The translations under genes and the position numbers were made by a program. From Camelus ferus (lineage: Eukaryota), in contig NC_045696.1 of NCBI RefSeq assembly GCF_009834535.1, positions 2,730,001-2,794,000 of the forward strand: 64,000 nucleotides of DNA, written 5' to 3'. The first letter of the stretch is position 1. Every line of letters begins with the position of its first letter. Below the pieces are notes generated by a model. The model had not been told where the DNA came from, ran no database searches, and saw only the letters and a list, made by a program, of their open reading frames with translations. Below are positions 324 through 41,200 of the stretch, one piece after another.

Positions 324-403
324 GGATCGGGCTGGCTCTGGCTGCCGCTGTGAAGGGCTACCGCTGCATCATCGTGATGCCAGAGAAGATGAGCACGGAG
401 AAG
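324..403 (+). CDS. CBS: CBS exon, 80 nt ([27 protein letters not shown])
   Basis: cccag|GG acceptor, AAG|gtgggg donor. Confidence 0.96.
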
Positions 404-3400
404 GTGGGGCCTGGGGTGCTGGGGGCGGAGAGCTGGGGAGGTGTGGGGCAGGGCGTCTCCCGGGCCCCCGTCCCCGCGCTGCAGGCCTGGCAGTGCAATG
501 AAGGCTGCAGCGTGCCTCTGCAGGTGGATGTCCTGCGCGCCCTGGGGGCTGAGATCGTGAGAACTCCCACCCAAGCCAGATTCGACTCCCCCGAGTCACA
601 TGTAGGGGTTGCCTGGAGGCTGAAGAATGAGATCCCCAATTCCCACATCCTGGACCAGGTGAGGCGCCAGGGCCCGGGGGCGAGTAGGTGCCCAGCGGTT
701 GGGACCTCAGTGGGGCCCTCCCGGGGGGGCTCTGTGGGGGCTTGGGGGTGGTGTTGCACGCGTGCTGCAGAGGTGACTGAGGTGCTGGCACGGGGTCGCT
801 GGCTGCTCCCGGCCCGTTCAGGTCCCCCAGCCAGCGGGGTCGGCCAGGCTGTTGCCTCTGCTGTCCGCTCCGCACACTGGGCTGGAAGGCCCTTTGCAGA
901 GGGCCTGGGACGCTCTCTACAGGCATCAGACATGAAAAGCTTCTTGCTGGAAGCTCTCTGCCACTTGTTCCACTTCTGGGTTAATTCAGAAATCGCGTCT
1001 TCTGGAGAGTTGGTCTTAGTGCTTGGCATCTGTTGAGGTGCCTGTGTCCTTCTCTGAGCTGCTGGGATCCTCTCCGGCTTGCGCTGAGCTGTTTGCCTGG
1101 CGCCCTGTGGCTGCTGCCAGTTCTGTGCATCGACCTGAACATGGCTCCTCTGCTGTCTTTTCTCACAGTACCGCAACGCCAGCAACCCCCTTGCCCACTA
1201 TGACATCACGGCCGAGGAGATCCTGCAGCAGTGTGACGGTGTGTACTTCTAGCCTAACCCTGCTGTCCATCTTGACTGGGAGTGTAGAAGTTACTTACCC
1301 TCTCCTTGGTAAACTCCTACTCATCCTTCAAAACCCAGCTCAAATGTCCCCTCTCTATAAAATGTTTTCTAGAGCATTTCCCTAGAGCAGTTTCCGGCCT
1401 CTATGGTGTTCTCTTGGACTTTGCCCTTGCCTCTCCTATAATATCAAACATACCGTCTTTGTTTACCTAGCCATCTTTCCTCCAAACCTATAGGAGCTCC
1501 TGAGCACAGGGAACAAGTGTGTCCCAGGCTGGTATGGGGCTCACAGCAGGGGTGTCACATTGCTGATTGGCACTTGGCATCAAGCCCCAACTTGGCACTG
1601 AATTCAACATTCAGGTTTTCTCATCTCCAGGTCTGGGGTGGTGACGTCCTACTCTGTATGGACAGGAGGCATCTTGGAACCTCTCCACACATTTGGTGCC
1701 AAGGCCGGTTGGGGTTGTGATGTTTCCTGATGGGCCATCTCCCTAAGAGATTTTCAGGACGAGTTCCAGGGGGTTGGCACCCGCCTTGGCTTCCTGTTGG
1801 AGCCTGATGTTGGCTTAAATGCACCTCGTTCCGTGCCCGGGAGCCAGGCAGCAGAGTCCGGGTATTTGCTCACCCAGGTTTTATGTGTGAGAATCTTCTC
1901 ATTTGGCAAAACCAGCCTTTCTGCCTCATCACAGGGGCCCGTGCTGACTTGTCTGCAGGTGCCCGAGCTGGCCCCTGGGCCCCCTGAGAGCCCAGACGAT
2001 GTCTGAGCCGAGCTGAGTGATTTATGCCAGTTCATTTCATAATTCAGCCCACTTACTCACGTCGAACAAAACCAGAGAGCTCAGGAAAGTGTGAGGGGCC
2101 GCTCCCGGGCTCAGCCCTCAGCCCCGTGCCCTGCCCCCCACAGGACGCCACCTTACCTACGACTCACAGATTCAGGACAGACAGGGATTTCAGTGGCGTC
2201 TGTCCTTTAGCAAAGACTTCAGTGAGGACTCCGGGTCCCTGTCACTGTCAACGCCTCTTAAAGATAAAGGACTGTGATCAGAGGTTTTAAATTTGAGAAC
2301 AGTTTCTTTAGAGCTTTTTGACAACCCGTCTTCCGTGTGCTTGAGTATGTTTTTGCACATTATTGAGAGTGGTGGGCTGGCCGTTACGGCCGGCCGAGAA
2401 CGTTCTCCCTGACGCAGCATCTCCCCCTCAGGGAAGCTGGACATGCTGGTGGCTTCCGCGGGCACGGGCGGCACCATCACGGGCATCGCCAGGAAGCTGA
2501 AGGAGAAGTGCCCGGGGTGCCAGGTGAGCGGCCCGGGGCTGCGAGGGTGCCGCCCTGTCCGGGAGAGGTGGGCCTGGACGTGAGCGCGTTTCCCACCCGA
2601 GGCCTGCGCTGCCGTTGGAGGCTTCATCGTTAAGCTCTCTGGCGTTGGGTAGAGTGGAAGGTTCTCGTCCCTGCCATTTCTGTGTAGACAGCCTTGTGTC
2701 TCACACGGTGGGCGCGCCTGCACCTGCCTGGAGATAAATGGCCCAGCAGCCCACGACGGGCCCCCAGATGAGCCAGGGTTGGGGGGGAGTCAATTTGGGT
2801 GGCCTCGAAGGATCATTCCAGAAGCCATAAGCACTCAGGTCCATGTCCTGCGGCTGCCCTGCCAGGGGCTCTGAGAGCCAGGGACGGGTACCTGGATTTG
2901 GAATTGAGTGGGCCTGGGGAGGGGCTCAGGGAGACGCCCCACTGGTGGCTCTTCCCTGCAGCCGGTCTCTGTGCCGTCTGGGAAGGGCAGTCCCAGCACC
3001 GCCCCTTGCCCCCAGACTGCTGTCCCAGGGGTCATCTCTCGAGGCTGTCCTGGGGCACCCTGCACGTGGGGGGCATTCCCAGGAGGCCACCTCCCCAGCC
3101 TCGAGCCACCCACCCCGAGTGCCCGGAGCTGGGGTTTGCCTCATCACCTCCCAGTGCCAGGCCTGGGTTTCTGGGCTTCCAGTCTTGCCCCTGAGACCTG
3201 GGAACAGCAGGGGGCCCTCACCCCAAGCATAGCCGCACGCGGCCAGGTGAGACTTTCCCAGATGTGAGCCCTGACGCCACCCGCTCTTCAGATCATTGGG
3301 GTGGACCCCGAAGGCTCCATCCTTGCAGAGCCCGAGGAGCTGAACCGGACGGAGCAGACGGTCTACGAGGTGGAGGGGATCGGCTATGACTTTGTCCCCA

Positions 3401-6400
3401 CAGTGCTGGACCGGACGGTAGGCGGGGGCAATGACAGGCCCAGCCTGAGGTCGCACCCTTGCACCCGCTGACCACGAGCAGAGAAGCGAGCCCTGGTGCA
3501 CAGTCCCGGGGGCCAAGACTTGGTACACGCAGTCCTGTGGCCATGATGAGCGCGTGCAGTGGCCCCACGGAGCAGATACGGAGGCCGCTGTGGGGGGGGG
3601 AGGGGTGGCACGTCCAGCCTGCACACAGATCAGGACCCTGCAGAGGGAGGGAGCAGGCAGCTGAGGCAGGCAAGCAGGCCAACGTGGGCGGTGGGACCGC
3701 AGGAAAGGCTCTCTGTGAGGATGCTAGAGGACGCTTGGCCCGAGAGACCAGGAGCGTGGCCATGCAACAGGGCTGGCACGCAGTTTTAGTACCCCAGGCG
3801 CACAATGTGCTCGACGGAGGCGGGGGAAGCCTTGGGTCTGCAGAGCGAGTCCCAGATCCCAGACGAGGGGCCAGGCCACACCCCTGGAGGGTCGCGGCCA
3901 CTTGGGCTGAGGCCGGCAGGGAGGGTGCAGACCAGATGGTGGGCTCCCTGCCCGCCCTACCCAGAACCACCCAAGTGCCAAGCTCCCGGCGCCGCCTGGC
4001 TGACCGCCTGCCCTCGGCCGCCCGCAGGTGGTGGACAAGTGGTTCAAGAGCAACGACCAGGACGCCTTCGCCTTCGCCCGCATGCTGATTGCGCAGGAGG
4101 GGCTGCTGTGCGGTGAGCGGGGCGCCGGGCTGCGGGCGGCTGGCTGCTTGCCCTCCGCCAGCCTCCAGGCCAGCGTGTGAGGATGCCCTCCCTACTTCTG
4201 AGGCTGCCCCACCCGCCTGCCCCCCATCTGCTCCAAGCCTTTGGGGTTCCGGGTGAGGGTTTGGTTCTGAAACCCTGAGCAGGCGTGAGGCTCCGTGGTA
4301 TCGAGGAGAACGTACACGTTCTCCTAGCTCCTCCCCTTGCACACATAGCTGCACACTGCGCCCCGGCAGGTCTGACCCCCGGGCCCTCTCGGCAGGTGGC
4401 AGTGCCGGCAGTGCCATGTCCGTGGCCGTGAAGGCCGCCCGGGAGCTGCAGGAGGGCCAGCGCTGCGTGGTGATCCTGCCCGACTCCGTGCGGAACTACA
4501 TGTGAGGCGCGCTCCCCCTCTGTTGCCCCTCCCCCTCCGCTTCCTCCAGCACTTAAGCTGTCACTGTCACTGCCCCCGGGGGTCTGCGCTGACAGCTGAC
4601 GGCAGGAAGGAGGCAGGCTGGGGGTCCCGGGAGTTCACGTTTTCTCAGCCTGTTCGTCCCCGGCTCGGGGCTCCCAGATGCCTCTGAAGTCAGTGCCCGC
4701 ACCGACAGGCCGGACAGACCTCCCCAAGGGGCCACCCCTCTGGCCCCCTTGCTTCTCTGAGCTCTCTGGGCCTAACCTCCAGCCAAGGGAGGAGGAGGGG
4801 GAGGAAGACGGGCCGCCCTCAGAACAGGTCCCCGCCCCTTGCCCACCACCCACTGGCTCACCCACCCTCTGGCCTTGACCGAGGAGACCCTGGCTGGGGT
4901 CAGCAGCCTGGGGACATGCTGTGCAATGTCTGAGCCACGGCCCCCGAGGCTCCTTCGATCTGATGGTGCTGCTTCTGCACACCCGCACAAGCCCTCTCCC
5001 CACGTGGCAGCTCACAGCCTCCGCTTTGAATTCCCGTCCTCTGGGCTGACGGCCTGCCGGAGGTCACCAGCCTGAAAGTGCCAAGGGTGTTGTGTGGGAG
5101 GGAGGGAGGGAGGGAGGGAGGGAGGGGGCAGGGGCCTAAAGACCGCCCTCACAGACCCTTGGATCCTCCAGCTTCCTCCCTGGCTCGGGAGCGGCAGCTT
5201 ATACACCTTGGGTGAGCTCAGATGTCCCAGGCTGGGTCTCCAGTTGGGGGCGAGTCACCTCAGGGTCCCCTGCTGAGCTGCCCTGAGCTGCACCGCCTGC
5301 CTCCCTGACTCGGTGCATGAAAACAGACGGTCATCTCTCCATGTGCCTGGCTGGCCTGCTGTGTACACACACGTGTGTGTGATGGGAGTGTGGGTGAATG
5401 AATGTGTGCGCACACGTGTCTTCTGCACCTGCGTCTGGTCCTGGGGTCTGTGGGTCATCTCTGACCCACACTTGGTTGGCCCTCGCCTGTCTTTTTAGGG
5501 CAGGTCCCTGGCAGCCCCCAAGGCATGGTCTGGCGCCCTCTGACCCCAGGTGGGACTCAGCTAGAGCAGACGTGAGGATGGCCAGGGAAGTGGCCGCCCG
5601 GGGAGCCCTGAGCAGGGGTACGGGATGTCACAGTACCCGGGACAGAACCTCTTCCCGTTCTCTGAGCTCGTGCGGCCCTGGTGGGCCAGGCGCCCCCGTC
5701 GGCCACAGCTCCCTAGGGGCTCTCTCTGGAGTCCAGCTCTCAGGCCGCTTGGTGGAGCTTCCAGCCAGCCCCGTGGAGTCTCTGCTGGACCCTTGGGGTC
5801 TGGGCAGAAATGCTGCACTTTCTCTCTCTGAGAACCGTGTCCCCTCGGTGTGGGCAGAGGCAGTGGTGAGACCCTGTGCCAGGCCTGGTGTCTTCTGCGG
5901 CTGCAGGTCCAAGTTCCTGAGTGACAAGTGGATGTTGCAGAAGGGCTTCATGAAGGAGGAGGACCTTACGGTGAAGAAGCCATGGTGAGGGCGCCTCTTT
6001 GCAGAGACCACTCCTGGCAGCCACCCACGTGGTTGGGGCTTGAGTTCCCGGGACCCGGCTCACAGCCCCCACCGTGCCCTCTCCCCTCAGGTGGTGGCAC
6101 CTCAGAGTTCAGGAGCTGAGCCTGTCGGCTCCGCTGACAGTGCTGCCCACGGTCACCTGTGAGCACACCATCGAGATCCTCCGGGAGAAGGGCTTCGACC
6201 AGGCGCCCGTGGTGGACGAATCGGGGTCAGTCTCCGCCGCCACCCAGAGCTCGGCCCTCTGGGCTCTGCCGGGAGCCTGCGGCCTGTGCCCCTCCCTCCT
6301 GTGTCTGCAGCGCGGGCCGGGCAGCCTGGTGCACCCAAAGCTGGCTGGCTGACCTTGGCCACTGTATATACAGATGCTCAGAGCATTGGACCGCTGGTCC

Positions 6401-9400
6401 CTGAGGACTGGCCAGGGTGGGGGCTGCTCATGTTAATCCTCTGGGCCTTAACGCCTTGGTCCCACCCCACTGCACCCAGTGTGTGCACAGGAGCCGGGTA
6501 TAGCAACCTGGCCTTGCTCTGAGGACGTGCCTAACAGTGGAAGGCCATGGCAGACATGCCCTGGTGACAGTGACCAACCATCCAGTTTCTCCCAGAACTG
6601 TCCAGTTCCAGCCCTGAAAGTCCTGTGTCCTGGGACACTGGCCAGTTGTTCACCTTTGACACCAGTCAGAATGGAGACACCCAAAGGGCGTGGGTTCCTG
6701 TCTCCCTGCACTGGACAGTCGGTGTCAAGGCAGGGCACCTGGTCGCTGCTGTGCTCCTGCCACACGGAGACCCTGGGCGGGCGGTGGTTGAATTCTAAGA
6801 AGAGTTCCACGCTCGACCCCGAGGGCGGCTGTGCTGAATTCTGCTGTCTCACAGGCGGAGGGGCACCCGTGCTGACCCCTGCCCCGTCCCCTCTTCCCCA
6901 GGGCCTGTCCTGGGGATGGTGACTCTGGGGAACATGCTGTCGTCCCTGCTCGCGGGGAAGGTGCGGCCGTCGGACCAAGTTCGCAAAGTCGTCTCCAGGC
7001 AGTTCAAGCAGGTGCGAGCCCCACTCGCCCGGGCAGCTGGCGCTGAGACCAGCTCCGTCCTGGAAGGCAGGGCTTGGCCCTCAGCTCTTCCCTGGCATCT
7101 GTTGGGCCAGTGCTGGCTGGACCCCATCAGACCCATATATCTGAGAATTTGCCCCAGCTTTGCAAACCGAGAGGCCCAGGTTGGGGAGGGGCCCACGTGG
7201 GTGAGGGCTCGCCAAGTCCATACCCGGGCAATGCCAGGGTCACTCGCAAGCCCAGAGACCCTCAGTCCAGCCGAGCCAGGTGTCTGCTGGCCTGACCCTG
7301 CTCCCTGGCGCCACGCCCTGATCCTGTCCTGCGCACGCTTCCATTTAAGAGTACTGGGCACACCCGATGATTCCACAAGAGCTGGGAGGCCCTGCTGTGC
7401 GGGGCCACTCGGACCCTGTGGTCCTCCTGAGGTGGTGGCCACCCTGTGGTGGGCCTGTGTCCCTGAGGGCAGGTGGAGTCGGGGCAGCCCCAGTCCCCAG
7501 CCTCGTGGCCCCCGACACCTGACACTTGGCAGTGCCTTCCTCGACTGACCCCCAAGTGAAGGGGGTGGAGAGCTGGTGGCTGTTTTACACTCGAAGGGCA
7601 AGGGGGTTGAGCCCAGGTCTCGGAATGGATTGGGTTTCCTTCTTCCCCACCATACACGGAGCTGAGATGCTGCCAGGATCTGGTATTTCTCGCCATTTCC
7701 ACCCCACTGCCACCACCTCTAGGGTGGTCCCTGCAGGTCCCTCATCCGGGCTCTCACTCCCCGCAGCTGGAGAGACTGCAGGAGGCATAGGTGGGGTCCT
7801 GTCCGTCCCTGTCAACCCCAGCCCCCCTGGAGAGTGTCCTGATGCTGCGACCCCCAGCTCTCTCCCCTCCTCCAGTCCACCTGTCCCGGTTCTCAAAGGG
7901 GCAGTTCTGTCCTGCCGCCTTTACCCCAGTTGTCTCCACCTGGCACCCCCCACCACACCCCAGCTGTAGGTCTCAGCTCAAAGCCCCCCTCCTCTTGGCC
8001 TCCCTGACCCCAGGGCCCAGCACCTAGCACGTTGGGAGTGTTTCTCGGAGCATTCATTGCCCTCCCCCCACAGTGTAAGCTCCAAGAAGCTGTCCTGGCC
8101 CCAGTGGTCACTGAGTGGGAAGCACGGTGCCCAGTGTCACCTGCTCATCCAGCCCCTGCGGCCCCTCCCAGGAAACCCATGGTAGTGAGGGTTGTGGGGG
8201 TGAGGACCCTCTGGATCCATAAAGGACTGTCTAGGTCCAGGGACCATCAACAGAGGACCTGGTGCCATGGTGACACTAAGGGACACCTGGGGCTGGGGTG
8301 TAACTCCAGGCATGTGGGATACAGGACTCCTCCTGGAAGTCCCCTTGCAGGAGCCCGGCACCCTGACCGGGTCGGGAGGAGCCCTGCGGTGGAGTCCCAG
8401 GCTGCCTGAGCCTTTCCAGTTTCCATCGCTTTGAAAAAGCTGAGTGGCAAGCTGTCAAGTTCACTTACCCCCACCTTCCTGCTCGCCCCCTTCCCTGGGG
8501 GTTGTTTAAAGCCACAAAGATCTTGGTAAAAGGAACTGTGGCCTCAAGTGAGTTCCAAGTGCAGGGAGGTCACCTTCCATCGCCCCAGGCCTGACTCCCT
8601 GGGGACCACCAGGCGCCCGGTCCTCTCACACGTGGAAGGTCAGGAAAGGGCGTAACCAGCTCCCCCCGGCCAGGGGGCTAAACTGATGAAGAGCGTCCTC
8701 AGAAGTGATTGCAGAGACCAAGATCAGGGCCATTTAAGCCTCTTGCCCAGAGCAAACATCTTCCTCCCGGGCATCTGGCTGCTGCGACTTCCGGGTTCCA
8801 AGGCAGCTGGGCTGAGACAGGGACCCTGGGGTTGCCCCCACCCTGCATTTCCGGGGTCTGGGGCGTGAGCTGGGCCAGGCGCTGGCGGTGTGTGGGGAGG
8901 AAGGGGGTGGCTCCACGTGGACCCACATACACCTGTGGACCGAGTGGGGTGGTGGGTCTGGAGGTGGGGGTCAGCCTCGCCCCTCCTGCGCAGTGGCTGG
9001 TCTCTCCGACCCCACCCCCTGACCTTCCCTCCCCAGACTTGCTCTGTCTTGTGCCCCCCAAAGCCCCTCTCCCATCTTGGGAACTCGCTTCCCGTGAATG
9101 CCGGGTGAGTCCAGTTCTATTTTCTTTCGAAAGATGGACCTTCGATGTCCTTTTTAAAACCCTTGCCAGTTCTCACTCTGTCTGCTGAGCAGATGGTGCG
9201 GAGGGAGCCCCCACGCTCCCGCCCTCACAGCCCTGTGCCGTCGCCTCTTGCACCGATCCAGAATTTGTTACGACGGTGATGGATATCACGTCGTTAGTGA
9301 CTGACGTCCCCAGCTGACACAAGGGCTCAGTCTTCGGGTTCTGCAGCTGTGTGGGCCGTGACACGCATGCGGTGACGTGTCTTGTCAGAGCATCGCACCG

Positions 9401-11854
9401 TGTGGCCCCACATCCTGGCTCCCTCCTGTTTCTCCCTCCGTCCTTGACCCACTGCAACCACCGATCTTAGGAGTTTTGCCTTTTCCAGAATGTCACGGGT
9501 GGGGTCACACGTGGGGAGCTGCCCCAGTTGGCTCTTGTGATTAGCAGTATGCACGGAGCCTTCCAGCTCATCCAAGTGTCCTTTTACACACGTCACATCT
9601 CCTTCAGTGTCTAAATCAACAAGAGGTCCAAGAGAACCTTCTGGAGGGAGGCAGCCTCTCCTGTTGCTTGGTGCTCCGTTCCTCGGAGGGCCTGGCAGAC
9701 GGGGACCGCAGGGACAGCAGGCCTCAGGCTCTGGCTGGGCTGGGCCGGGCTGGGCTGGCTGGTGAGTGCTGACCGTGGCTTCTCTTCCAGATCTTCCTGA
9801 CGGACCCGCTGGGCAAGCTCTCACACATCCTGGAGACTGACCACTTCGTCCTGGTGGTCCACGAGCAGATCCAGTGTAAGTGGGGCTCTCTGGGGGCCGG
9901 GGTGCTGGGAGCCGGAGTGCCGGCCACTGAGCGCCCAGCTTCCGTGTGCACGTTCCTGCCATGAGCTCACAGGGAGCCTGGGGAGTCTGAGGTGCTGACC
10001 GTCAGCCACCCCCAGCCTTGGGTGCAGATCCCAGAAGGGTCCACATGGGTGCCCGCCCCCAACAAGCTCGTGGGGCTGATAACCTGCTCCCAGGGCCCTT
10101 CCCGGGCCTCCTCACTGTGTCTCCAGAGACCGGGGGTGTCCTGGTTCTGGGCGAGGACAAGGGCTGTAGAAATCACAAGAATCGGGAGGGCCTTGGGGCC
10201 TGACCACTCTGCTGCCAAGGCTGGTCCTGGGGCCCAGGTGCCCCATCTAACCCCTCTCCCGTCCTTGGCTCCACAGCACGGGACCTGGCCTTGTCAGGAG
10301 TGGTGGGGGGGCCAGCAGGTACGTACCCCCGCTCGGCTGTGCTCAGCATCGCAGCCCCTGACCGCAAAGGAGGGCGTCCAGGCCCCAGGTCCCGAGCCGG
10401 GCTGGGAGCTCCCTCCCCTTAATGTCACGTCAACTCATGTCTCAACATCCACACACCCCGACCTGGGTTCCAGAGTCAGGTCTGTAAGTGAGGTTTCCTT
10501 GGACACAGCCATGCCTGAAAACAGGTCCACGGCTGCTTCTGTGCTGTGTGGGCAGAGCTGAGTGGTCATTACAGAGCACACAGCCCTTTACAGAAAGTTT
10601 GCCAACCCTGCTCTGGATGGTGTCCCCTGGGGGGCCTGGAGGCCCCTCAGATCGCCCCCTCCTGGGGGGCGCACAGCTTCTCCAAAGTTCCCCTTTGCCC
10701 AAAAGTTCCTGAGGTGCTCCAAGCAGGCCAGTGGGATGCCAGGCCCCTCTGTGCCTCCCCCACCCCCACCCTGTGCGACCTTTGCCCCGAAGGCATGGGG
10801 GACAGACAGGGATGTGGGGCTGGTGAATGGGATGAGACCTGGGTGTCTCCCACCCGTGCTCAGCTCTGCCGGCCCTCTTTGTGCTCCATGACACTGTCTC
10901 AGTCCAGGTTCCCCCGGGAAACAGAACCAACAGGATGTGTGGAGAGAGATTTGCTTAACTGGCTGATAGGCTGGGAAGTCCCAAGATCTGTACATGACTG
11001 GGCGGGCTCGAGCCCAGGCAGGAGTCAGCGTTCCCTCCCGAGCCCGAAGGCAGGACTGGTCCCCTCTTACTCTTGGAGGCTCTGCCTTTTTGTTCTATTC
11101 CGGCCTTCGACGGATTGGACGGCCCCCCGCCCCCTGCACTGAGGAGGGCATCTGTGTTACTAGGTCCCTCCAACCAGGCACTGACACCATCTGGAGACAC
11201 CCAGGATGGTGTCTGACCGCTCTCAGGGCACTCGGGGTCCAGTCAAGTTGAAGTGGAAAATTAACCATCTCAACCACCCTCTCTGCTCTTGGAGGCTGGC
11301 GGGGGGAGACCAGGGGCATTCATTCTAAGTCTGAGGGAAAGGCGTGGGTTTGCAGACGGAACTGTGGGCAGAGACGCCAGCTGCTGGTGGTGGGGGTGAG
11401 CAGTGCTGGGACTCGAGCCTGGGGCACCGAGGGAGACCACGCACCGCTCAGGCAGCCCCAGGGGGCACAGCTCAGAGGAGTCAGCACTCTGCTCTCTGCG
11501 GCTCAGCCCACTTGGCTGGTGTCGGGGGAGACGGTCCTTGTCACTGGGCTGCCTTGGGTGCCGCCCTGGGACACCTGGGCTCAGGGCAGCAGGCGGGGTT
11601 GGTCCCCGACGGCGCCTGGGGGTGGGCGCGGCTGCCTCAGACCTGCCCGGGCGGAGGCCCCCCTAAACCTGCGGCCTTGTCCCTCCTCAGACCACAGCCA
11701 CCGGGAGGCCAGTAAGAGGCAGACAGTGTTCGGGGTTGTCAGCGCCATTGACCTGCTGAACTTCGTGGCCACCCGCGAGCGGAACCAGAAGACAAAGCTA
11801 GGAAGCACCTCAGAGCCCAGAGGCATGGGGGCCGGGGCCCAGCCCGCCCCGTGA
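324..11854 (+). CDS. CBS: Cystathionine beta-synthase, 5'-partial spliced CDS: join(324-403,524-658,1169-1238,2432-2523,3292-3417,4028-4112,4396-4501,5907-5984,6091-6225,6902-7011,9791-9875,[10277-10318 optional],11691-11854)
   Basis: Exons translate to recognisable CBS peptides ([32 protein letters not shown] loop, CPGC motif, GIGYDF, DSVRNYMSKF, CBS domains). All introns are GT-AG and phases are consistent, except a +1 nt in exon 6902-7011. Confidence 0.98.
524..658 (+). CDS. CBS: CBS exon, 135 nt ([15 protein letters not shown]...SHILDQ)
   Basis: ctgcag|GTG acceptor, CAG|gtgagg donor. Confidence 0.97.
1169..1238 (+). CDS. CBS: CBS exon, 70 nt ([23 protein letters not shown])
   Basis: tctcacag|TAC acceptor, G|gtgtgt donor. 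Confidence 0.96.
1300..1570. mobile_element. Degenerate L2-like LINE fragment
   Basis: ctcctactcatccttcaaaacccagctcaaatgtcccctc resembles the L2 3' region (pattern recall). Confidence 0.5.
2432..2523 (+). CDS. CBS: CBS exon, 92 nt ([31 protein letters not shown])
   Basis: ccctcag|GG acceptor, CAG|gtgagc donor; contains the GTGGT loop and CXXC motif. Confidence 0.97.
3292..3417 (+). CDS. CBS: CBS exon, 126 nt ([14 protein letters not shown]...[14 protein letters not shown])
   Basis: cttcag|ATC acceptor, ACG|gtaggc donor. Confidence 0.97.
4028..4112 (+). CDS. CBS: CBS exon, 85 nt ([28 protein letters not shown])
   Basis: ccgcag|GTG acceptor, G|gtgagc donor. Confidence 0.97.
4396..4501 (+). 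CDS. CBS: CBS exon, 106 nt ([15 protein letters not shown]...DSVRNYM)
   Basis: ggcag|GT acceptor, AT|gtgagg donor. Confidence 0.97.
5907..5984 (+). CDS. CBS: CBS exon, 78 nt ([25 protein letters not shown])
   Basis: ctgcag|G acceptor, TG|gtgagg donor. Confidence 0.96.
6091..6225 (+). CDS. CBS: CBS exon, 135 nt ([19 protein letters not shown]...[10 protein letters not shown]), CBS1 domain
   Basis: ccctcag|G acceptor, GG|gtcagt donor (phase 2). Confidence 0.96.
6902..7011 (+). CDS. CBS: CBS exon ([35 protein letters not shown]), 110 nt as sequenced, one base too long for frame
   Basis: CTGAC branch-like motif and pyrimidine tract, ccccag|GGCCTGTC acceptor, CAG|gtgcga donor; 109 nt is needed to join phase 2 to phase 0. 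Confidence 0.92.
9791..9875 (+). CDS. CBS: CBS exon, 85 nt ([28 protein letters not shown])
   Basis: cttccag|ATC acceptor, T|gtaagt donor. Confidence 0.96.
10277..10318 (+). CDS. CBS: CBS alternative 42-nt cassette exon ([15 protein letters not shown] when included)
   Basis: ccacag|CA acceptor, G|gtacgt donor, symmetric phase 1-1; resembles the known mammalian optional CBS exon (human SQDQAWAGVVGGPAD-type insert, from recall). Confidence 0.85.
11691..11854 (+). CDS. CBS: CBS last coding exon ([33 protein letters not shown] plus 20-aa tail, TGA)
   Basis: ctcctcag|AC acceptor; [17 protein letters not shown]2 motif; stop TGA at 11852-11854. Confidence 0.94.
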
Positions 11855-38200: not shown

Positions 38201-41200
38201 GGCCTCCAAGTTGTAAATGAGGATGTAGAATGTACCCATGCAGCCCAAGCACAGAGAACGAACACAAAGAGTGAGTCCGTGTTCTTAAGTAAGAACTAGT
38301 AACAAAATACTGCTTCTGCTTTAAACCTAAGTGTGAAAGAAAGAAAAGCATGCGTGTATCTGCAGAATGTAAAGGCTCAGAGACGGCTGGATGGCCAAGG
38401 TCTGGCCAGCACATCCCGGCACCTCCAGCTCTGTCACCCAGCCCTGCCCCTGTGGCCTGAAAGTCCTGCCTGGAGGTTCCGCCATGAACTTCCGCAGGCC
38501 TGGAGGGTGCGTCTACGCCGCCACCTGTCCCCTGCAGCAGAGGCGACACCACACCCAGGGTTGGACTGGACAACATCAGTCGCCCGCGGGGAGGGACAAC
38601 ACAGGACTTCTCCTTCCTCAGAGTCCCCTGAACTTTGCAACAATGGGGAGATGAAGAGTGAAAAGGGAACAGAACACTGACGTTCAGATGAGCTGGAGAC
38701 GCCGCGGGAAAGCGAGTCTGAGACAAAGGATCTCTCTCACGTGGAGGGAACAGCTGGGGCCACGTTCCACCTGCGTCCCCACACCTGTGCCGCCCGCCCC
38801 ACACCCTTCCCGGGAACCGTGCCCGCACCTGGGAGTTCTGGATCCTGATCGTGCCAGGCGACAATGCCTGGGTCACCACCTGGCCTTGGGGAGTGACGAC
38901 TGTGACAGGCTGGTAGACTGTGCCACCTGGAAAAGGAACAGGGAAAGTTAAATCCCTCTCACAACTCAGCGATGAGAGCGTCTTCTCAGTGTGCTCAAGG
39001 AAGGGACACAGCCTGTGGCGTACGAGCTTTGGAAATCATGTCAAATGGTCCACAGTGTTCTGCCAGGTGACCTGCCACCCAGCGGGGGAGCAGGTGCCAG
39101 GCGGGCGGCCGTGGCCCCTCACCACCCAGGGCAGGGGATGGGGGAGGGCTGGGAGGGGCGCGGTCTGCGCCTCTCTTCCGTGGCTCACCTCTACTTCCTC
39201 CTTTCCCCACAGTCAGTGTGTAGGGAAGGACTTGGCCAAGGTGTCTGACAACAAATACTTTTATTCTACTTATTTTTTTGATTCAACGTGCTTTCGACTT
39301 CCGATGGAGGCTTCCGTTTGAGCAATTATGTGGGGGGTTTAGTGTAAAGGCTCCACTCCCCCCAAGCCCCACTCCACTTTCATGATGGTTCTGTGTATGC
39401 AACGTACAACAAAAACCATTACAGGAAGGGGACAGATTCTAGAGGCCTGTGGTGCGCCTAGAACAAGTAATCCTGACCTCCAGGCTGCATGTTCATCTGC
39501 GTGTCATTAAGTAATAGCTCTGCTTAAGATCTTCCAGTGCTGCTGGAGCACAATTAAAAGCTATGTTATTTGAAAATTATAACTGTTTTTGCAATATATT
39601 TTTAACTCCTATAAAACCTTTCTTCCCAATACTTTTTGACAGGAAAACACAATTTGCATAAAACATTCGTTACTGAGAATTAACAAGAATCAGGCATTCA
39701 AAGAGCTCCAGGCCTTGGCGCTCCTCTGTCGGGAGCCGGCGTTAACTAAAACCTGTAGTTTTGAACTTCTTCATTCTACTATAAAGGCTTTTTTTTCTGC
39801 AAAAGCTCAAGGAAAGTGTCCCTATTCCTGTCTTCGTACCTGCCACTGTTGCCATGGTTACGTTCCCCTGTTGCAGCGCGGACGCCGGCACCACGATTCC
39901 TTGGGGGCTGAGAGTGCCCGTGATGGCACTTTGAATCTGCTGTAAGTCACAGATACACAGTGAAGGGATGAGTAGAAAACAGGAGACCCACGTTTACAAC
40001 TTCAGAACAAGTGGCATAACAGTATCACTAATGAAGGAAAGCTGCCTGAGGCACAGAGCGTATCAGACGACAAGCCTTCCGGAACGCATGCGTTACATAC
40101 ATACCTGGAAACCTGGAGGCAAAACTGACTGAACATTAAGTATGATGATCAATACTGAGATACTAGTTTCAACTGAGCTTCCAAAAGATGACCTTTCATC
40201 TCATCAGCATACTAAACACACCCTACGGCCCTGGAAGACCAAAATTACCTAATCTCATCACACAGCTTTTCCATTCAATTTGGCTCAGACTCTTTTCCAG
40301 GAACCAAAGTCTCCCGGACAGGATGAGCTATTCTCCAAAAGATTACGCCACAGGCTGGGGAGTCAACCCCGGCGCCTGCACGCTCCGTGCCTGCCCTCCC
40401 CATGTCGAAGCCCTCGTGTTCACATTTGTGGGGTGTGGGGCCTGGGCCTGGCCTACAGTAAGCTCCATGCACATGTCTATAAACACCGCGTCGGAGCTTC
40501 CACTCTTCCACTCATGTGAAGGCAGATCCTAAAGGGCTAATGTATCCATTTGCAGTCAGGGTGAGGTGGGGACTGGTGAGGGAAGGGATCTCTGCCCCTG
40601 GCATCCAGCACAGGGTCTGGCACGCAGCAGACACCCAGGAACTTGAACAGCTAAACAGTGGATATCCTTCAAAGACAATTACTCTGTGGGCTACTACATC
40701 AATTTGAAAGCAGAAGCTTTGGTAGGTATATAGAAAGTCTGCCACATTACCCTTGTCAGAATCAAAATTAAGCCACCCAAATCAGTGATTTAAGCCCCAC
40801 ATCAAGAACCTAGAAAGAGAGGAAAGAAATGAAAGCAACACAAAAGGAAGGGACAGATACTCTGAGTGGCCCTGTAACTATTAAGGAAGCTGAATTAGCA
40901 CTTCTAGAACTTTCAAAAAGAAATCTTCAGGTCTAGGTAGTGTCACTGGAGAAGTCTACCATTTAAAGAAGAATTAATGCCAGCTCCACACAGTCTCCTC
41001 CAGAAAACAGAAGAGGAGAAAACATTCTCCAACTCATTTTATGAAATTTGTATTATCCTGATAACCAAACCTAGCCAAGGACTATACCATGAAAGATTAA
41101 TTACAGATGACTGCCCCTTAATGTACACACAAAAATGCCTTAAAAATATTAGCAAACAGAATAAGGCATCTGTATAAAAGAATTATGTGCCGTGACCAAG

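Follow-up and report, generated by a model that had tools for sequence, protein, structure and literature searches.

An apparent frameshift in the regulatory domain of CBS from the wild camel is probably an assembly artefact

The closest described systems are truncated forms of human cystathionine beta-synthase (CBS), an enzyme of sulfur metabolism, and the false frameshifts of long-read genome assemblies. The regulatory domain of human CBS spans residues 411-551, its AdoMet site is described as including Phe443 and Asp538, and a loop (516-525) drives the formation of filaments (PMC10995199). Human CBS that is cut at residue 414 is reported to be about 3.5-fold more active and to be unresponsive to AdoMet (PMC4133348). 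Only truncations in the linker seem to be hyperactive: nonsense variants that fall in this regulatory domain are reported as largely deleterious and null-like (PMC6993387). As for assemblies, short indels are described as the commonest error in those from CLR long reads and as a cause of false frameshifts (PMC8081667), and nearby allelic variants can give indel errors in collapsed assemblies (PMC8445201).

Here we consider a stretch of 64,000 nucleotides from the wild camel (Camelus ferus), which we call the window. The final 12 of the constitutive coding exons of CBS lie in it (324-11854, + strand; we spliced them by coordinates), as do the coding exons of PKNOX1, our control (Table 1). A preliminary description of this DNA had reported a frameshift in the regulatory domain of CBS. 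We argue that the frameshift was correctly observed, and that it is probably an assembly artefact that is already visible in RefSeq.

The frameshift and the exons around it

The preliminary description claimed that the exon upstream of the break ends in phase 2 and that the next exon is 110 nt long where the frame needs 109 nt. Both points are correct, and the surplus base lies among C6904, C6905, and T6906: of 12 single-base removals that we tried, only the deletion of one of these three restores the camel A-V. The spliced product is open to Gly453 and then runs for 52 codons to a TGA at 9838-9840. The number of codons and the stop were both as described, except that the first residue of this run is still the normal Ala454. 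The frameshift is p.Val455Cysfs*52. Residue numbering is colinear between camel and human CBS, and the exon matches human residues 455-489 if reading starts at 6907. The first changed residue, 455, is thus inside CBS motif 1 (416-468) and not in the linker (about 409-414).

Table 1. Positions of CBS and PKNOX1 features in the window
Feature	Position	Strand	Remarks
CBS exons for the catalytic domain and linker (n=8)	324-403, 524-658, 1169-1238, 2432-2523, 3292-3417, 4028-4112, 4396-4501, 5907-5984	+	All in phase
CBS exon upstream of the break	6091-6225	+	Phase 2 end, within Gly453; donor GG/gtcagt after 6225
Two weaker upstream AGs	6853-6860	+	Exon starts 6855 / 6861; frame restored, 16 / 14 residues added
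3' splice site, conserved	6870-6901	+	Branch-point-like motif, pyrimidine tract 17/18, AG 6900-6901
CBS exon for residues 453-489, from the last part of CBS motif 1 into motif 2	6902-7011	+	110 nt as written
Site of the surplus base, CCT	6904-6906	+	After G6903, two letters complete the Ala454 codon; a C or the T is extra
CBS exon with premature TGA 9838-9840	9791-9875	+	TGA is 35 nt before the exon's donor
Optional in-frame CBS exon, 42 nt	10277-10318	+	AG/GT ends; peptide in database isoforms
Final coding exon of CBS, up to the natural TGA	11691-11854	+	Spliced by coordinates
PKNOX1, 10 coding exons (control)	26051-49949	-	Open frame

In the other exons that we checked, the reading frame is in order. 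The other 11 constitutive CBS exons are in phase and the 10 coding exons of PKNOX1 form an open frame (435 or 436 aa), as had been claimed. The two lengths of PKNOX1 come from tandem acceptors (NAGNAG) in one exon, at 39936-39941 (-). The catalytic domain of CBS (PF00291, PLP-dependent) is found at residues 81-376 of the shifted RefSeq model XP_032312385.1 (E 1e-72). The shifted product has no match to PF00571, and its pair of CBS motifs is out of frame; the coding information for these motifs is still in the DNA, shifted by one base. The Pfam CBS domain is gone from XP_032312385.1 and is found in all three of the in-frame camel proteins that we scanned.

We also considered whether the exon boundaries could be wrong. 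The acceptor (ccccag, ending at 6901) is richer in pyrimidines than any other of the 12 acceptors in CBS, and 30 nt upstream of it there is a branch-point-like motif. Furthermore, in five unspliced open reading frames from another mammal, the intron is in one frame and the exon is in the next, which corresponds to one base fewer. This strong site and the register of the other mammal's reading frames rule out a misplaced acceptor as the cause. Skipping the 110-nt exon leads to an immediate stop, and skipping two exons leads to a stop as well. The in-frame alternative donors near 6225 are poor candidates for a rescue, being GC sites or poor GT sites.

Some other features of this part of CBS are worth recording. 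The optional exon encodes a 14-residue peptide that is found in database isoforms from camel, alpaca, and serow. The C-terminus of camel CBS (11790-11854, +) extends about 20 residues further than that of the human protein (551 aa), with similar extensions in pig, sperm whale, and serow. Near residue 484 (6996-7001, +), all of the camelid records that we saw have V-S-R, versus I-Y-K in most mammals. Because V-S-R is common to all of these records, it is, judging from the sequences, a real change in the regulatory domain in the camelid lineage.

CBS in other camelids and other mammals

We compared the window to 15 camelid CBS records at the protein level; comparison with further assemblies from this species and its sister species was among the checks that the preliminary description had proposed. 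In 13 of the 15, G-A-V is intact across the junction. These are the older wild-camel model EPY88123.1, four records from the domestic Bactrian camel, five from dromedary, one that is dromedary-like, and two from alpaca. (EPY88123.1 has an N-terminus with RRM and zinc-finger domains fused to CBS. The fused neighbour is presumably U2AF1, joined by gene prediction.) The two exceptions are the RefSeq wild-camel models XP_032312385.1 and XP_032312585.1, which lie on one contig of 122,453,268 bp; the contigs of intact records have five other lengths. Because the exceptions share a contig and the other 13 records are intact, the break belongs, as far as these proteins can tell, to a single assembly and does not characterise the species.

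The two exceptions are informative in themselves. XP_032312385.1 (Camelus ferus CBS isoform X1, 505 aa) equals the window's shifted product exactly, from residue 152 to residue 505 including the shifted tail. It does not differ from the window anywhere in the part that the window covers, but it is a computed model and so is not independent proof of the allele. XP_032312585.1 has G-P-V at the junction and returns to frame via a one-base workaround. On the window's letters, G-P-V is the outcome if either exon boundary shifts one base and so uses a non-canonical site, and it occurs in just 1 of the 120 spliced CBS proteins that we examined. The surplus base is already in the public RefSeq annotation, and the simplest reading is that the window stems from the assembly behind the RefSeq wild-camel models.

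Apart from the break, the window's CBS is ordinary. Upstream of the break it is identical to Bactrian CBS over 302 aa, and downstream over 117 aa (419 aa in all). The Camelus bactrianus protein XP_074203366.1 (571 aa), whose residues are identical on both sides, differs from the window in that it stays in frame across the exon and has a Pfam CBS domain at 416-468. A dromedary residue near the C-terminus is absent from the window's protein, which, with the identity to Bactrian CBS, marks it as that of a two-humped camel. Among the best 120 of 201 matches to the window's CBS, the top ones are from Old World camels. We also noticed an unrelated 56-aa ENA protein within the cluster of camel CBS proteins, where it is apparently mis-clustered.

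Could splicing absorb a real base? If splicing moved to one of the two upstream AGs, the enzyme would be full length with 16 or 14 more residues in CBS motif 1. Both of these acceptors give a reading frame that is free of stops to the natural end, and they are in frame only on the window's allele, although a nearby AG would be in frame one third of the time by chance. However, their pyrimidine tracts (12/18 and 10/18) are poorer than that of the undamaged canonical site, neither type of RefSeq wild-camel model uses them, and none of the 120 spliced CBS proteins has an insert there. Across 139 proteins, the junction has a spacer of two residues in 120 and no protein has a longer insert; one more is the shifted model, and we set aside the other 18 as unspliced or unrelated. 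We consider this kind of rescue to be very improbable.

It seems more improbable still that wild camels are a lineage with constitutively active, AdoMet-insensitive CBS. The activity of the human enzyme that is cut at 414 (PMC4133348) would be a precedent, but the camel cut falls within motif 1, 41 residues further on, and nonsense variants in that part of the human enzyme are reported as largely null-like (PMC6993387). Also, the older wild-camel record is intact and the downstream coding sequence has not decayed. More broadly, we reject a lineage-wide truncation or pseudogenisation, given that EPY88123.1 is intact and that the 117 aa downstream are unchanged.

Open reading frames across the site added little. 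A search with the shifted frame gave one match among 99 candidates, from another mammal; it missed XP_032312385.1, which is not the representative of its cluster, so it is insensitive to such records. A reverse-strand frame over the site matched none of 2,803 candidates.

An assembly error or a rare allele

Since short indels are described as the commonest consensus error in long-read assemblies (PMC8081667), we think that the best reading of these sequences is a one-letter consensus error in the wild-camel genome assembly, with a probability of roughly 0.87. If so, the animal's true CBS would be the ordinary full-length enzyme of about 571 aa, regulated by AdoMet. The error would have arisen at the consensus or polishing stage, perhaps by doubling the C of a true GCT codon, or perhaps because a heterozygous and synonymous C/T at the third position was written as both letters. 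From this sequence, the annotation pipeline would have made two models, one that is shifted and one that is back in frame through a boundary moved by one base. Such a pair is expected if the transcript evidence is without the base. The preliminary description had considered a consensus indel error to be at least as likely as a real allele; this judgement stands, and the comparative evidence makes an error much the likelier of the two.

Other considerations point the same way. There is no compensating change in the 419 aa, and the 117 aa that follow the break have not decayed; the latter disfavours an old truncation. At one error per 10 kb (an illustrative rate that covers all error types), the chance of at least one error in the 1,716-nt coding sequence is about 0.16, which should be far above the chance of a real null in a given conserved gene. 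The region's GC content is 63%. The false frameshift in TLK1 in a hummingbird assembly was likewise a single short indel in one assembly, in a conserved gene that was otherwise intact, and was confirmed with reads (PMC8081667); the camel CBS case was followed in assembled sequence and annotated proteins.

Some observations fit an error less well. The break is at a CC pair and not at a long homopolymer. The coding sequence that we checked, about 2.6 kb (1,263 nt of CBS and about 1,310 nt of PKNOX1), has just this one break, so the window is not visibly error-rich. The intact records are from other animals, and are compatible with an allele that is private to the sequenced animal. And if the window came from one animal and the RefSeq models from another, independent one, then the base that they share would be real. 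The words that a short piece with the site (155 words) shares with public sequencing runs cut both ways, and we do not count them as evidence. The piece is present in 20 of 24 listed runs, with a best share of 0.97, 13 runs at 0.95, and none at 1.0. A one-base difference removes about 3.3 of 155 words, for a ceiling of 0.98, which fits with the base being absent. The best run's surplus of three words may equally be one variant that it shares with the window, possibly the surplus base.

The main alternative is that p.Val455Cysfs*52 is a real but rare loss-of-function allele, heterozygous in the sequenced animal and chosen by the haploid consensus. Such an allele would be recessive and of the homocystinuria type, and the protein would probably be unstable. 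The base is in the window as well as in the RefSeq wild-camel models, the loss of the Pfam CBS domain and the placement of the premature stop (below) are what such an allele would bring, and CBS deficiency is described as recessive, with viable carriers (PMC6993387). The absence of a second coding break in the window also fits. On the other side, the allele is absent from the other wild-camel annotation and from all other camelid records, and a null in one given conserved gene should be much rarer a priori than an assembly indel. We consider this allele to be unlikely. We found no report of a camel CBS variant in the literature that we searched, although most subscription journals were outside its scope. 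PMC8069558, PMC7468183, and a preprint on AQP10 (10.64898/2026.09.20.752922) were no help on this point; the variant files that PMC7468183 cites, which are deposited elsewhere, could be relevant to it. CBS protein has been detected in tissue of the domestic Bactrian camel, with no size given in the main text (PMC11276878).

Consequences for the enzyme and for the reference

Suppose that the base is real. The shifted protein would retain Phe443 but would lose Asp538, the oligomerisation loop at 516-525, and the Pfam CBS domain. About two thirds of motif 1 would be kept, its end and all of motif 2 would be lost, and a foreign tail of 51 residues would follow. Like the human core that is cut at 409-414 (the 45 kDa form), it would have the heme and PLP domains and no complete Bateman module. 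Unlike that core, which is a clean cut in the linker and is hyperactive, it would keep residues 414-454 and add the foreign tail. The preliminary description had proposed an active core that merely loses its control by AdoMet, which holds for clean cuts at 409-414 but is not supported for a shift inside motif 1 (PMC6993387). Because the shift at 455 is inside motif 1, and human truncations there are largely null-like, a real allele is likelier to be null-like than deregulated.

Transcript decay is generally triggered by a stop that lies more than 50-55 nt before the last junction. Here, 35 nt separate the premature stop from the last junction, and 77 nt do so if the optional 42-nt exon is included. 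So transcripts with the optional exon would be targets for decay, while those without it may escape.

If the base is an error, then the RefSeq models of wild-camel CBS have an incorrect regulatory domain. A false truncation of CBS could then turn up in screens for gene loss or for adaptation to the desert, and variant calling against this reference would yield a fixed one-base deletion in every animal. The main value of our finding is as a warning about the reference annotation. In the less probable case of a real base, a frameshift allele of CBS would be segregating in the small population of wild Bactrian camels, with a hidden risk of recessive homocystinuria. One of the upstream acceptors, in frame on no other allele, may rescue it in part, or the transcripts that escape decay may give an AdoMet-blind enzyme. 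An endangered species would then carry a recessive disease allele, which would also be a natural test of what happens when CBS is cut within motif 1 in a mammal.
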